Source: Octopus vulgaris
Taxonomy: Eukaryota
Reading direction: 5' to 3'
NCBI GenBank assembly: GCA_951406725.2
Contig: OX597822.1
Span: forward strand, 19,592,001 to 19,656,000
DNA length: 64,000 nucleotides
The notes under the pieces were generated by a model, which was not told where the DNA came from, searched no databases, and saw only the letters and a program-made list of their open reading frames with translations. The translations under genes and the position numbers were made by a program. Of the stretch, positions 8,519-43,770 are shown in pieces. How positions within the stretch are numbered: position 1 is the stretch's first letter; every line of letters starts with the position of its first letter.

Positions 8519-9042
8519 AGTACAAAGTAAGATAAGGGTTATGAGGGTAACCCACTATAGGATATCAGTTATCCAATATACTGCTGGTGAAGCACCCAAA
8601 TATTAAATACATAAATGCTTATAATTGCAATGCAATTAATTCATTTATTGTATTGGATGGGTGAAGGTAAAATATTTTACCGTAAATTCATAATACAAAT
8701 AAGAAAATGGAGGAACAAATTCATTTCGATCATCAACTTACAGATATTACAATTTCATATTATTTATTAATTATATAAATAGGAACATGAAAATCGAACA
8801 AAACAATATACATCAATATGCAAATTAATAATACAATAAAAATAATGCAAATACACTGCTCCTTACAGCTGTTTCAGCCTATGGTTAAGAGGCAATCCAC
8901 CTTAAATTACTCATATATGCCATTATAGTATAGTCTTAGGCATTAAAGATTATATTTATCTGTTTAAATAATCAAAGGCCTCATCAGAGGATATACATAA
9001 TTACAAAGTTCGAAACGAATTTGTTCCTCCATTTTCTTATTT
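8519..9042 (-). mobile_element. Non-autonomous Penelope-like element with hammerhead motif
   Basis: 3' part homologous to 23692-23920; about 8697-8727 is inverted at 9010-9042; (TA)n flanks; contains a hammerhead core. Confidence 0.7.
8860..8991 (-). ncRNA. Type I hammerhead ribozyme motif
   Basis: UCCU-CUGAUGA-GGCCU-[95 nt]-AGGCU-GAAAC-AGCU-GUA-AGGA. Confidence 0.75.
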
Positions 9043-9915
9043 ATATATATATATATGACAGACTATACTATATATACATGTGAGTGGGGTACCAAAAAGA
9101 AACTGGAATTTTGCAATATTATTTTATTTACTTAGTTTTACATGCTTACACTCTACTGCTTTCAAATATTCTCCATTTGAAGCCATGCATTGGTTCAGAC
9201 GCATTTTCCACTCTTCTTCGACCTCTTGCTAAGTGATGCTTTTAATGCCTCCATTGTTTTTTTATTTTTGTCACTTCTTCCACATCTGCAAAACAGTTTT
9301 TTATTTGATGCCGGTACCACCCAACTGGCCCACGTGCCGGTGGCATTTAAAAGCACCCACTACACTCTCGGAGTGGTTGGCGTTAGGAAGGGCATCCAGC
9401 TGTAGAAACTCTGCCAGATCAGATTGGAGTCTAGTGCAGCCTTCTGGTTTGCCAGCCCTCAGTCAAATCGTCCAACCCATGCTAGCATGGAAAGCGGACG
9501 TTAAATGATGATGATGATATATATATATATATGTATATATGTAAATGTGTATATATATATTTGTATGGATGAATGGATTATCCTATGTTTACTGTTAACA
9601 TGGAAAATTCAATAAACTGTTACCAGGGTAGCAAAATTCACGTCAGAAACACAGTTGAAATGACCTATCCAAAGGTAGAAACTCCGGGTTAATGTGCAGT
9701 AATTTGTGTGTTATAAATGAATAAATAAATAAATGGAGTTGAACAAAGATGTTAATAAAATTCTTTTACTTTCGACATATGTTTTTTTCCTCACGAGAAG
9801 ATTGCATTTTACACCGTTTATTCCTTTGGAATAAAACCATGTTATCTTCGAAACATATGTCGAAAGTAAAAGAATTTTATTAACATCTTCATTCAACTCC
9901 ATTTATTTATTCATT

Positions 9916-9973
<58 letters not shown>

Positions 9974-10015
9974 TATATGTATACATGTATATATGTAAAT
10001 GTATATATATATATA

Positions 10016-10277
10016 TCACGTGACCGACCAGACCATCAGATGTGGTTACACATCGAATGACGCCACCCCGCTGGCTAAGCGAGCAGGCCAACAGAAGAAA
10101 GAGTGGGAGAAAGAGTGGTGAAAGAGTACAGCAGGGATCACCACCCCCTGCCTGAGCCTCGTGGAGCTTTTAGGTGTTTTCGCTCAATAAACACTCACAA
10201 CGCCCGGTCTGAGAATCGAAACCGCGATCCTATGACCGCGAGTCCGCTGCCCTAACCACTGGGCCATTGCGCCTCCA
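10016..10277 (-). mobile_element. tRNA-derived SINE (head ggaggcgcaatggcccagtgg) with RTE family B-like tail
   Basis: A/B-box-like head; tail ..ggtctggtcggtcacgtgata; embedded in (TA)n; tail also present at 48926-49045. Confidence 0.8.
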
Positions 10278-10312
10278 CATATATATATATATATATATGT
10301 GTGTTTATATGT

Positions 10313-10388
<76 letters not shown>

Positions 10389-10750
10389 ATGTATATATAT
10401 ATATATATATATGTTTATATATATGTGTATGTATATATATATATATGTTTATATATATGTGTATGTATATATATATATATATGTTTATATATATGTGTAT
10501 GTATATATATATATGTTTATATATATGTGTATGTATATATATATATATATGTTTATATATATGTGTATGTATATATATATATATGTTTATATATATGTGT
10601 ATGTATATATATATATGTTTATATATACATGTATGTATATATATGCATATGTATATAAATATGTTTATATGTATACATGTATATATATATGTTTATATGT
10701 ATACATGTATATATATATGTTTATATATACATGTATGTATATATATATGC

Positions 10751-10800
<50 letters not shown>

Positions 10801-10864
10801 GTTTATATATACATGTATGTACATATATATATGTCTGTATATGTATGTATGTATGTATATGTAT
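10278..10864. repeat. Compound (TA)n/TATG microsatellite
   Basis: Direct inspection; source of the spurious YI-rich ORFs. Confidence 0.95.
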
Positions 10865-11278
10865 GACAGGCATCCATACAGTTTCTGTATACCAGCCTCA
10901 CTCACACGGCATTGGCTGGCCAAAAGCTACAGCAAACACACATGCCTAAGTTGCCATGCAGTGCCATAGAACTTGTGATTATATGATTGCAAAGTCTGTC
11001 ACATATCCACAGAATCATACTTGCACCTCATCAGATTGCTAGATTTAATAATTAACTTTTTCATCTGACGCTCTTGTAATCTAGACACTTGGCCATTACA
11101 ATGTCTCACCTGTTATATACTTCATAACATGATAGCCTAACCATATTTATTTCTTAGAAAATGGTTTCCTATATTTATTTCCTTCAATGACTCAATTCCA
11201 AAACTGATTTTAATCATTTCATCATTGAAGCTAGATATTTTCCTTTATATTGATTCTGTTTTAATGTTCACCTTTCAG

Positions 11279-40692: not shown

Positions 40693-40789
40693 GTAAGATT
40701 CATTTTGTTTTCGTGTACGTAATTCTTCTAAGGAAATATTCACAGGATTATACAGAAAATGTATGTGCATGCTTGTGTTTGTATGTGTG

Positions 40790-40867
<78 letters not shown>

Positions 40868-42182
40868 ACCAGTGCTTAGAACTCCATGTAAATCCATGTA
40901 TATCAAGATTCCAATCAAGTCTTAAGCATAGTTTGTCCTCCAGTTCTCTTTTGGTGTTATATACATCGAATAATTTACAGAGTGTATATCCAAGAGTAGA
41001 ATAAAATAAGAGATTTAGTTTGTATTTTTATCATGCCATTATAAATTATATAATCTTTATGTGTTTCACTAATAAATACTGGTATGCTCTGTGGTAATTG
41101 TTATATAGATGATTACATAATCTCATTGATACACCATATCTTCAGAAGAAAATAATAATTTAAACGATTGTTATGTACTATTTTCTGAATCTGGTGTTTG
41201 AATTGTTTACATAATGATTATCACATAACATACAAGTATTCACTAGTGAAACACATGTAAATATTATACAATTTATGACGTTATGATAAATAAAAAAATC
41301 TCCTGTTTCTTTTTGCTCTCAAATAATATGTTAATTTTGGATAAAATATCCCTTTCCAAGAAAAAGAAATATTTTGAATAGCATAGTCTGTTGGTTCTTG
41401 ATGCAGAAACGGCGAGTTAAGACACAGAACCAGTATGCCAAGCTAAGAAACATATTTCTCTCTTTAAACTTTTGAAAAAAAGTAATTTACCCAAAATATC
41501 AAGACCAATTAAATATCCCTAGGGTTTGGCATGCTGGGTGAAATGCTTAGCAGTATTTTGTCTGCCACTATGCTCTGAGTTCAAATTCCGCTGAGGTTGA
41601 CTTTGCCTTTCATCCTTTTGGAGTCGATAAATTAAGTACCAGTGAAACATTGGGCTCGATGTAATTGGCTAGAACCTTCCCCACAAATTTCAGGCCTTGT
41701 GCCTATAATAGAAAGGATTATCATTATAGATATTTAATGTTTGATCAGTATGCTATTGTCCTCTATAACATTCTGATGTGTTTCCCTCTCTACCCGTCTT
41801 CCCCTCTAAATATATTTTGTACCAAAAGGGCATGTGAAGATAGAGCTTTGTGTACTCTTAGTGTACTTCTTACCAACAGGCAGTCAAACTTCATTTAAAC
41901 AACACACTAGTATCTTATGTAAAGTTCCATTAATACAGTATCCAATTGCTTGGCACTTTTTGTTGCTCTTTATTAGATTTGTTTCCTGCTGTCAGTTTGT
42001 ATTATACATGAGACATGTTTTTTTCTAAGATTTCATTGTTCAGAGTTAGGTTTGCACATCATGCATGCTTATTATATGCAGATAAATATGGGATAGGTGG
42101 ATAGACAGAGAGAAGGACAGATAGACAGATGTGTGTGTAAAAAGGAGTATTTTACCCTAAATATCAAGAACAATTATATATA

Positions 42183-42510
42183 TCATCATCGTCATCATTT
42201 AACATTCATTGTCCATGCTGGCATGGGTTGGATGGTCTGACTGGATTGGATGATCTGACTAGGCTGGCATGCTGGCTGGCTGCCCCAGATTCCAATCTGA
42301 TTTGGCATTGTTTTCTATGGCTGACTGCCCTTCCTAATGCTAACCACTCTGAGAGTGTAATGGGTGCTTTTTTGTGCCACCAGCATGGGTGCCATTTGTG
42401 TGACATCAGAGTGTGTTTGTGTGAGACTTTGCTTGGATTGATGGGTCTTCTTCTCAAGCACTACATAATGCCAAAGGTCTTGGTCATTGTCTCCGTGAGG
42501 CCCAACACTC
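42183..42510 (-). mobile_element. Older RTE family A 3' fragment
   Basis: DQDLWHYVVLEKKT C-terminus plus 3' UTR and (GAT)n. Confidence 0.75.
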
Positions 42511-42536
42511 GAAAGGAACTCACCCACTTTGCCTCC

Positions 42537-42686
42537 AAGCCTTCAGTTCAATGTTAAATTGTTTTTATACATAATTTAACATAAGAATAAGCATTTACAT
42601 ACATACATGCATGCTTGTATGTATGTAAATGCTTATTCTTATGTCAAGTTATGTATAAAAACAATTTAACATTGAACTGAAGGCTT
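42537..42686. repeat. Near-perfect 150-bp palindrome
   Basis: aagccttcagttcaatgttaaattg...caatttaacattgaactgaaggctt, arms about 70 bp, very short centre. Confidence 0.9.
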
Positions 42687-43081
42687 ATTCAATACTTTTT
42701 AGTACAGTACATACTTATTGTCTTTTACTAGAAAAAGGTTGACAGTAATTTCAATATTTTGGCTTGCTTTCCTTCATTAGACTGAAGAAGGCAAGCAAGC
42801 TGAAACTTTGAAATCCCTGTCATCTGTTTCCTTGTAGAAGTTAATATACGTTGTAAGAATAAAAAATGGGGTGAAATTACATGATCTGGCTGTTTTGGTG
42901 ACCACAACAGATGGTTCTCATCTATCAACAATATAAATGAGTGGTTTTATGCATCACTAGTCCAATTGAGAGATTTTCTCAAGGTAAATAATACAGTATT
43001 GTGTCCTAACATAACATCCAAGTTGGAGATAAAGATTGCCTTTTTGTATTAATACTGTTTCTGTCACTATATATGTATATA

Positions 43082-43139
<58 letters not shown>

Positions 43140-43140
<1 letters not shown>

Positions 43141-43762
43141 ATAATAAGGGTAAATAATTTCTATAGAGGTTTTTAAAAAAACCACAATTATTTACTGGTA
43201 GAATTCGGTATGTAAATATAGCCGATTACCGGCAGGAACTTCTGTAAAGTTCAGTATATATATTGTATATAAGAAAAAGGGACAGGCAACAGGTTGCTTG
43301 ACCGCATACCGAAAAAATAGAAATAGCAGTCAAGAATGCTTATTTCTATCAAAGTGGGACTCCGGGCACGACAAACCCTGTAATTCACATATGCAAAACA
43401 GAAGGAATAGATATCGAAAACGAAGTCTGGTGGTTATCTGTGAACATCATGTTTCTGGATTATAAACATATTGAATATATATTTCATATATATTTTTGAT
43501 ATATATTTCATATACATTGCATATATATTTCACATCCTTCTTCAGCACAGCTTTCCATTGAAATAGATTTATCATAGATTTATCAAATGCTACGTACCTC
43601 AAACCTTCTGACCATGCGACATCAAAATATTTGAAGAAAGCGAGCAAAGGCTAAACCTACATAGACGTTTGAATTCGTAAATCTTCCCTCCAAAATTTTG
43701 CCATGCGCACTACAAAAATAGTTCCATAGGAGTAGGAACTATTGGGTTGCCTGTCCCTTTTT

Positions 43763-43770
<8 letters not shown>
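43140..43770 (-). mobile_element. Non-autonomous Penelope-like element with hammerhead motif
   Basis: about 43267-43290 is inverted at 43747-43770; terminal TTACCCTTAT; (TA)n on both flanks. Confidence 0.65.
43438..43550 (-). ncRNA. Type I hammerhead motif (A-A mismatch at base of stem II)
   Basis: CUGUG-CUGAAGA-A-GGAU-[73 nt]-AUCC-A-GAAAC-AUGAU-GUU-CACAG. Confidence 0.6.

Follow-up and report, generated by a model that had tools for sequence, protein, structure and literature searches.

The 64,000-nucleotide window analyzed here (Octopus vulgaris contig OX597822.1, positions 19,592,001 to 19,656,000 of the forward strand) is rich in repeats, with RTE-type reverse transcriptase (RT) fragments, a DDE transposase remnant and many microsatellites. 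It also contains six elements (E1 to E6) that carry hammerhead ribozyme motifs and that are probably inserted ends of Penelope-like elements (PLEs). An initial annotation of this DNA had listed E1 to E4, all of which are real, but had overlooked E5, which was a blind find of the relaxed motif scan described below, and E6, which turned up in a search for short-range inverted repeats. It had also placed E3 at 23692 to 26466; the start is correct, but the element continues to 27645, with its right arm split by an RTE long interspersed element (LINE). The elements and their parts, in window coordinates, are as follows.

8520 to 9046, minus strand: E1, PLE-type insertion flanked on both sides by TA runs; it comprises a short inverted arm, the hammerhead, a 3′ segment and the tail
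8860 to 8991, minus strand: E1 type I hammerhead; intact core, stems I/II/III of 4/5/4 bp, 95 nt inside helix II
after 8864, minus strand: predicted GUA cleavage site of E1; palindromic stem III
9010 to 9046, plus strand: E1 inverted arm, a 37-nt copy of 8693 to 8729 that stops at the tail-less 3′ end
8520 to 8692, minus strand: E1 tail, multi-hairpin, homologue of the E3 tail
16166 to 16703, minus strand: E2, PLE-type insertion; 474-nt unit at 16166 to 16639, tail at 16166 to 16256
16395 to 16477, minus strand: E2 type I hammerhead; intact core, stems of 6/6/5 bp, 10-nt palindromic stem III, 38 nt inside helix II
16640 to 16657, minus strand: E2 mini pseudo-long terminal repeat (pseudo-LTR), upstream of the unit
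16657 to 16703, plus strand: E2 inverted arm, a 47-nt copy of 16257 to 16303
23692 to 24203, minus strand: E3 left arm, with tail (23692 to 23860), 3′ segment, 5′ half of the hammerhead and upstream body; several internal deletions
24402 to 26118, plus strand: E3 non-coding body, upstream of the hammerhead; short repeat at ~25860 to 26055
26129 to 26255, plus strand: E3 hammerhead; U4C core change, stems of 4/4/4 bp, E1-type stem III, 92 nt inside helix II
27616 to 27645, plus strand: end of the E3 right arm, past the inserted RTE LINE (26467 to 27615) and followed by (TA)22
43141 to 43768, minus strand: E4, PLE-type insertion between TA arrays; tail at ~43141 to 43254
43746 to 43768: E4 inverted arm, 23 nt
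43438 to 43550, minus strand: E4 hammerhead; A.A at 10.1-11.1, GUU site, stems of 5/4/4 bp, 73 nt inside helix II
9561 to 9925, plus strand: E5; its inverted arm at 9712 to 9783 bears the tail
9785 to 9866, plus strand: E5 hammerhead; G5C core change, 41 nt inside helix II
40866 to 41319, no strand assigned: E6, an old two-armed inverted copy with arms 69% identical; its hammerheads are decayed, with 44 to 57 nt inside helix II, and its tail lies on the left arm adjoining (TG)n

All six elements have inverted arms that point outwards, a common inner 3′ end and a tail on one arm only, which is the inverted-copy and one-sided-tail arrangement of an endonuclease-positive (EN+) PLE. The inverse duplication of an internal segment described in the initial annotation is present in E1 to E4, with arms of 37, 47, 105+25+30 and 23 nt, respectively; in E3, the left arm is a mirror of the right arm with deletions and reaches 24402 to 24622. 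The tails of E1 to E6 measure about 173, 91, 169, 114, 151 and 127 nt. In E1, E2 and E4 it is the long arm that bears the tail; E3, E5 and E6 bear theirs on the inverted arm. Microsatellites lie on both flanks of E1, E3, E4 and E5 and on one flank of E2 and E6. Insertion is into (TA)n, with a CA/TG array on one side of E3 and E6. The microsatellite flanks noted earlier are therefore present in E1, E3 and E4, but the right flank of E2 is AT-rich and not a microsatellite. An inverted truncated copy, a one-sided tail of 30 to 40 bp and (TA)n targeting are published signatures of PLE insertion (PMC8557442; here and below, statements on published work refer to the parts of each source that were covered), and the Penelope-like link that had been proposed on first inspection is supported by the inverted truncated arm, the tail on one arm and the microsatellite targets. 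A terminal ACCC(T/C)TAT-like motif, also noted earlier, occurs in E1 to E4 and is absent from E5 and E6. Telomere-repeat priming through this motif was considered and dropped: in E1, E3 and E4, it forms the 3′ side of a terminal hairpin, and E5 and E6 lack it.

The short elements have longest open frames of 48 to 87 codons, in agreement with the earlier statement that no open reading frame (ORF) is present, but E3 contains a 211-codon frame, which has no Pfam match. Six read-through frames of the E3 body gave no Pfam match, and a tblastn search with PLE proteins gave none in the body either; the queries were homologues of at least 600 aa of the Poseidon-type RT of the window, and they matched the window only at 36500 to 38000. 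A GIY-YIG remnant in the E3 body was rejected, with no Pfam match at E≤1 and no usable Atlas match for the 53-aa frame. E2 differs from the other elements in having an exact 18-nt copy of its own terminus directly before its 474-nt ORF-free unit. The 13-mer core of this repeat occurs only twice in the window, and the corresponding repeat before the unit is 6 to 9 nt at best in E1, E3, E4 and E5. Of the six elements, only E2 has the appearance, judged from its sequence, of a complete non-coding unit (474 nt).

Each hammerhead was examined for the boxes CUGANGA and GAAA, an NUH cleavage site, and three helices with the motif open at stem I. All of these are present in E1 and E2. E3 (U4C), E4 (A.A at the base of helix II) and E5 (G5C) each have one deviation, and E6 is decayed. 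Thus, the four type I hammerheads of the initial annotation all have the motif, but the core is intact in only two of them; the stem I pairs that it gave (UCCU/AGGA, CGGUUA/UAGCCG, AUCU/AGAU and CUGUG/CACAG) were all recovered in E1 to E4. A strict scan of the window, which required perfect boxes and a palindromic stem III and allowed a long helix II insert, gave two matches (E1 and E2) and none in any of 100 block-wise dinucleotide shuffles. A relaxed scan that tolerated one deviation, and that was designed after E3 and E4 were already known, gave five matches (E1 to E5), compared with a total of one across 100 shuffles (mean, 0.01). Hammerhead motifs are present in the window far above chance.

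These motifs are not seen by standard searches, as had been suspected. Among 119 Rfam matches in the window at E≤5, none is a hammerhead, and the spacers between the core boxes of E1 to E5 (105, 50, 100, 83 and 53 nt) exceed the 7 to 17 nt permitted by the descriptor of Craig et al. 2021 (PMC8557442). Neither a long-gap hammerhead pattern nor a tail-hairpin pattern, each scanned for separately, had matches in JGI metagenomes. Counts of ribozymes in animal genomes depend on Rfam models and short-loop descriptors; since six elements in 64 kb escape both, the ribozyme count for this genome is probably a severe underestimate, and a rescan that allows long loops is warranted for those PLE clades that are claimed to be without hammerheads.

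The initial annotation had described AU-rich stem II loops of 40 to 95 nt. The inserts are 38 to 95 nt long, but those of E2 to E5 are predicted to fold as extensions of helix II, in which a small internal loop separates a short basal helix from a long AU-rich hairpin (z scores, −2.6, −2.6, −4.2 and −3.5). The E4 insert is largely an 11-nt minisatellite. In the predicted monomer folds of E1 to E5, stem I forms in E4 only, and the hammerhead fold lies 0.9 to 13.3 kcal/mol above the minimum. Pairing of the palindromic stem III between two copies is predicted to yield −6.4 to −13.8 kcal/mol in E1 to E5, in line with the dimer-type hammerhead proposed earlier. These modeled energies fit a dimer-type ribozyme, but they fit decayed copies equally well.

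The elements had been grouped as one family, and this grouping does not hold. E1 and E3 are homologous (76% identity over 231 nt, with an identical stem III), whereas local alignment scores for the other pairs among E1 to E5 are inside the shuffled range and E6 has no significant match to E1 to E4. The four elements listed earlier are three families. Because E1, E2 and E4 lack alignable sequence, the terms “one family” and “covariation” apply to E1 and E3 alone, and the covariation-like support that had been drawn from all four stems is valid for that pair only. Between E1 and E3, stem I has two double changes (by eye) and the tail has three credible double changes among 50 predicted pairs. 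Two of five tail double changes were set aside, as the long-range helix that contains them is missing from both single folds. The E1 and E3 inserts hardly align. The tails of E1, E3 and E4 fold better than shuffles (z scores, −3.2, −2.5 and −2.8).

Other copies were sought for E1 only. E1 is partly present in 20 of the 24 sequencing runs listed, from 10 studies and four organisms; none of the runs listed with E1 is on record as RNA. Four runs were examined, three of them DNA, and with 878 to 1,252 matching contigs per DNA run, the E1 family is multi-copy in all three. Contigs of the family enter TA at the tail end (21, 14 and 22 contigs in the three DNA runs); entry at the inner end (8693) is seen in three contigs, all from one run. 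Each of three inversion joints has its own position, and the E1 joints listed are opposite-strand only, with no go-back joint among them. Depth drops from the 3′ tail toward the ribozyme; the tail has 25 to 40 times the summed depth of the 5′ core, although depth is not copy number. The variable inversion breakpoints and the fall in depth toward the ribozyme are as expected of 5′-truncated PLE ends. Diverged contigs cross the long insert without gaps (e.g., X2 record 24, which spans 8859 to 8980 with 17 differences), which indicates that the long insert is a trait of the E1 family. In other copies, positions 8886 and 8972 have majority letters that lengthen E1 helix II by two pairs. Among the 40 variant rows listed, of 88 in all, none falls in the 50 core and stem positions, compared with nine in the 87-nt insert (rough Poisson probability, 0.006). 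One run that was guessed to be RNA covers the tail and 8871 to 8980 and leaves 8841 to 8863, beside the predicted site, uncovered; this is a single contig set, and it was not used as evidence.

Based on the arms, tails, insertion targets and ribozyme motifs, we consider it probable that these elements are inserted 3′ ends (a pseudo-LTR with an optional tail) of several unrelated PLE families, each with a hammerhead whose helix II is 38 to 95 nt longer. PLEs as an element type, hammerheads in PLE ends and non-coding PLE derivatives are already known. In the literature found, we did not find described a helix II that is 38 to 95 nt longer in at least four unrelated families or tails of 90 to 175 nt in place of 30 to 40 nt; in E1 and E3, these tails are predicted to fold and show compensatory changes. 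The candidate 474-nt non-coding unit of E2 is a further new aspect. No report on long-helix PLE hammerheads or on cephalopod PLE hammerheads was found either; most subscription papers, together with Repbase and Dfam, were outside this search, so absence from the literature is not established. A giant squid paper gives only a count, of 235 Rfam hits.

By analogy with the anole Poseidon protein, a PLE reverse transcriptase-endonuclease would cut both strands of an AT-rich microsatellite and prime cDNA from each. Synthesis of one cDNA would begin at the tail end and that of the second at the inner end, and two such start points would leave arms that are inverted, unequal in length and tailed on one side only. 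The 5′ truncations and the E3 deletions may arise from premature stops and template jumps. The hairpin-rich tail is predicted to be a protein-binding and initiation signal, and the ribozyme is predicted to act as a dimer via its palindromic stem III, probably with the help of protein; most copies in this material are decayed and, as they are single per strand, would not release circles. The masters could be coding PLEs or non-coding derivatives, with E2 pointing to a short non-coding master. Non-autonomous masters are possible given the complete-looking E2 unit and the ~2-kb E3 body, which has no RT or endonuclease remnant. The in vitro study of the PLE RT start step is for one element only in the literature covered, and the long E1 and E3 tails with their compensatory changes offer a natural map of the start signal.

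Published systems share much of this organization. The PLE pseudo-LTR hammerheads of Cervera and de la Peña 2014 (PMC4209133) are likewise type I, with a short stem I and a palindromic stem III region; they are mostly solitary motifs, probably from truncated PLEs, with some opposite-strand pairs and many families per genome. Their helix II is 7 to 8 bp at most, compared with 38 to 95 nt inside helix II here. Hydra-clade PLEs, including Hydra-1_Obim (PMC8557442), resemble the octopus elements in (TA)n targets, in GUA, GUU and GUC sites, in CUGAAGA cores and in a 4-bp palindromic stem III with a 0- to 2-nt center, and E6 contains an additional U, after A9 and before GAAA, as is typical of Hydra-clade table rows. 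In contrast, Hydra-clade loop 2 is 3 to 10 nt in 27 of 27 rows of File S2 of that paper. The longest loops in File S2, ~30 to 35 nt, are in three plant rows marked as deviating, and in eight Naiads with a “half core,” 35 to 50 nt separate it from the second box. The ends of Hydra-1_Obim and of an octopus Naiad, compared by eye in the portions covered, do not match our elements. The anole Poseidon PAc (Frangieh et al. 2024, PMC11167929) similarly has two 3′ ends with or without a tail, AT-rich targets and a stem-loop near the 3′ end. In vitro, the tail corresponds to the stretch from one RT start site to another, and extension takes place on both strands; the tail is 30 to 40 nt and lies inside the start of the ORF, whereas the tails here are non-coding. 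The Adineta Penelope derivatives (PMC3846280) and the non-autonomous Chlamys elements, e.g., MRC1 (PMC8557442), share inverted pseudo-LTRs, microhomology deletions, captured non-coding spacers of 0.9 to 1.5 kb before the 3′ pseudo-LTR, and mobilization in trans. They are a precedent for the E3 body and the E2 unit, and a long-helix hammerhead is not mentioned in the parts of those papers covered.

Several observations weigh against the conclusion that these are PLE ends with an extended helix II. The core is intact in only two of six elements, and helix II of E1 is absent from the predicted fold of E1 itself (pair probability, 0.00; z score, −0.74). The fold score of E4 is inflated by an AT minisatellite. 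The tails far exceed the published 30 to 40 nt, and those of E2 and E5 fold no better than shuffles (z scores, 0.34 and 0.75). None of the six elements is joined to RT or GIY-YIG sequence, the covariation is based on just two sequences, and the E1 depth gradient is confounded because subfamilies share the tail but not the insert.

The elements had been interpreted as a retrozyme-like non-autonomous family, that is, short non-coding RNAs of fixed length that are circularized by tandem hammerheads and inserted by a PLE RT. We regard this as unlikely. The 18-nt copy of the 3′ end just upstream of the ORF-free E2 unit favors it, as does the lack of PLE coding sequence in every element, and non-LTR retrozymes (PMC7229834; bioRxiv 10.64898/2026.07.22.740005) are also short, non-coding elements derived from PLE pseudo-LTRs with type I hammerheads, among which solo monomers are described (bioRxiv 10.64898/2026.07.22.740005). 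However, retrozymes are defined by head-to-tail tandems that give circular RNA, whereas the octopus elements are several unrelated families with single motifs in an inverted arrangement and with PLE tails. There is no head-to-tail hammerhead array in the window up to a period of 500 and no go-back joint among the E1 joints listed, the E1-family inversion breakpoints vary, and unit junctions lie away from the cleavage site. In E3, the template reaches ~1.7 kb upstream of the ribozyme, and the small E2 repeat could be a single template jump like those in E3. The sharp drop in depth just upstream of the E1 core, which might favor the retrozyme reading, falls at the inversion junction of E1 itself.

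Alternatively, the elements could be PLE ends in which the ribozyme has no function and helix II has drifted by slippage in an AT-rich, microsatellite-prone genome. Core or base-of-stem defects in four of six copies, the minisatellite in E4 and the poor alignment of the E1 and E3 inserts are consistent with this, and the anole hammerhead, which cleaves only with protein, is dispensable for insertion in vitro (PMC11167929). Nevertheless, the core boxes and all three stems persist across unrelated families, E1/E3 stem I is maintained through double changes, E1 helix II gains two pairs with the majority letters of other copies (8886 and 8972), and the variants listed for E1 spare the core and stems and fall in the insert. 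Defects are also to be expected in single old copies, and on balance we find loss of function improbable. The inverted termini, the lack of an ORF and the absence of an Rfam hammerhead might instead suggest miniature inverted-repeat transposable element (MITE)-like or short interspersed element (SINE)-like repeats that resemble hammerheads by chance in AT-rich DNA. This reading is very hard to sustain and is already largely refuted by the shuffle controls and the arm analysis. One inverted arm is internal rather than terminal, the breakpoints vary, and ARAGORN calls no tRNA gene. A bolder form of the preferred explanation, PLE ends with an extended helix II, is that they belong to a large overlooked class in which a long helix II has emerged or persisted in many unrelated PLE families and is functional, as a substitute for the loop I-loop II contact or as a protein handle, and in which some carriers, such as E2, are complete non-coding parasites of ~470 nt with long structured tails. 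We hold this to be possible but doubtful; if it is true, the limits that descriptors set on loop II would account in part for reports of PLE clades without hammerheads.

A PLE relic with RT sequence in the window also speaks for the PLE reading. At 36720 to 38280 (plus strand) lies a decayed Poseidon-type Penelope RT (RT at ~36720 to 37720) with a downstream domain, frameshifts and stops, 60 to 75% identical to database proteins. As a partner of the six elements this relic is unsupported, with no common end visible. It is followed at 38290 to 38480 (plus strand) by a short repeat whose head resembles a tRNA (by eye; no ARAGORN call) and which ends in (AAT)n. The 3′ part of this repeat contains a minimal hammerhead-like hairpin, decayed and with a loop of 10 nt, and the repeat is possibly a SINE that took a PLE end. 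A small insert at 35200 to 35341 (minus strand), between (TA)25 and (CA)n, has a GAAA box, a Hydra-style stem III, a stem I, a short helix II and a badly decayed 5′ box; we read it as a short-loop relative.

The cleavage triplet of E3 overlaps with a 5′ splice-like site, and ~160 nt downstream there is a good 3′ splice-like site (26249 to 26409, plus strand); by eye, these sites are not clearly kept in E1. An intron origin of the E3 left-arm deletion was rejected, as the deleted segment (26224 to 26441) does not coincide with the splice-like sites and has microhomology (by eye). The RTE LINE within E3 carries at its start (26467 to 26545) an inverted duplication of its own 5′ end. RTE-like LINE RT ORFs lie at 14077 to 15822 and 32798 to 35191 (minus strand), with a weak PHD-finger match just past the RT domain. 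A MITE-like element at 30138 to 30484 has 53-nt inverted ends and an inner 31-nt inverted pair, a 150-nt near-perfect palindrome (96%) lies at 42537 to 42686, and a Tc1/mariner-like element at 46132 to 47312 has 39-nt inverted ends in TA and a DDE_3 remnant.

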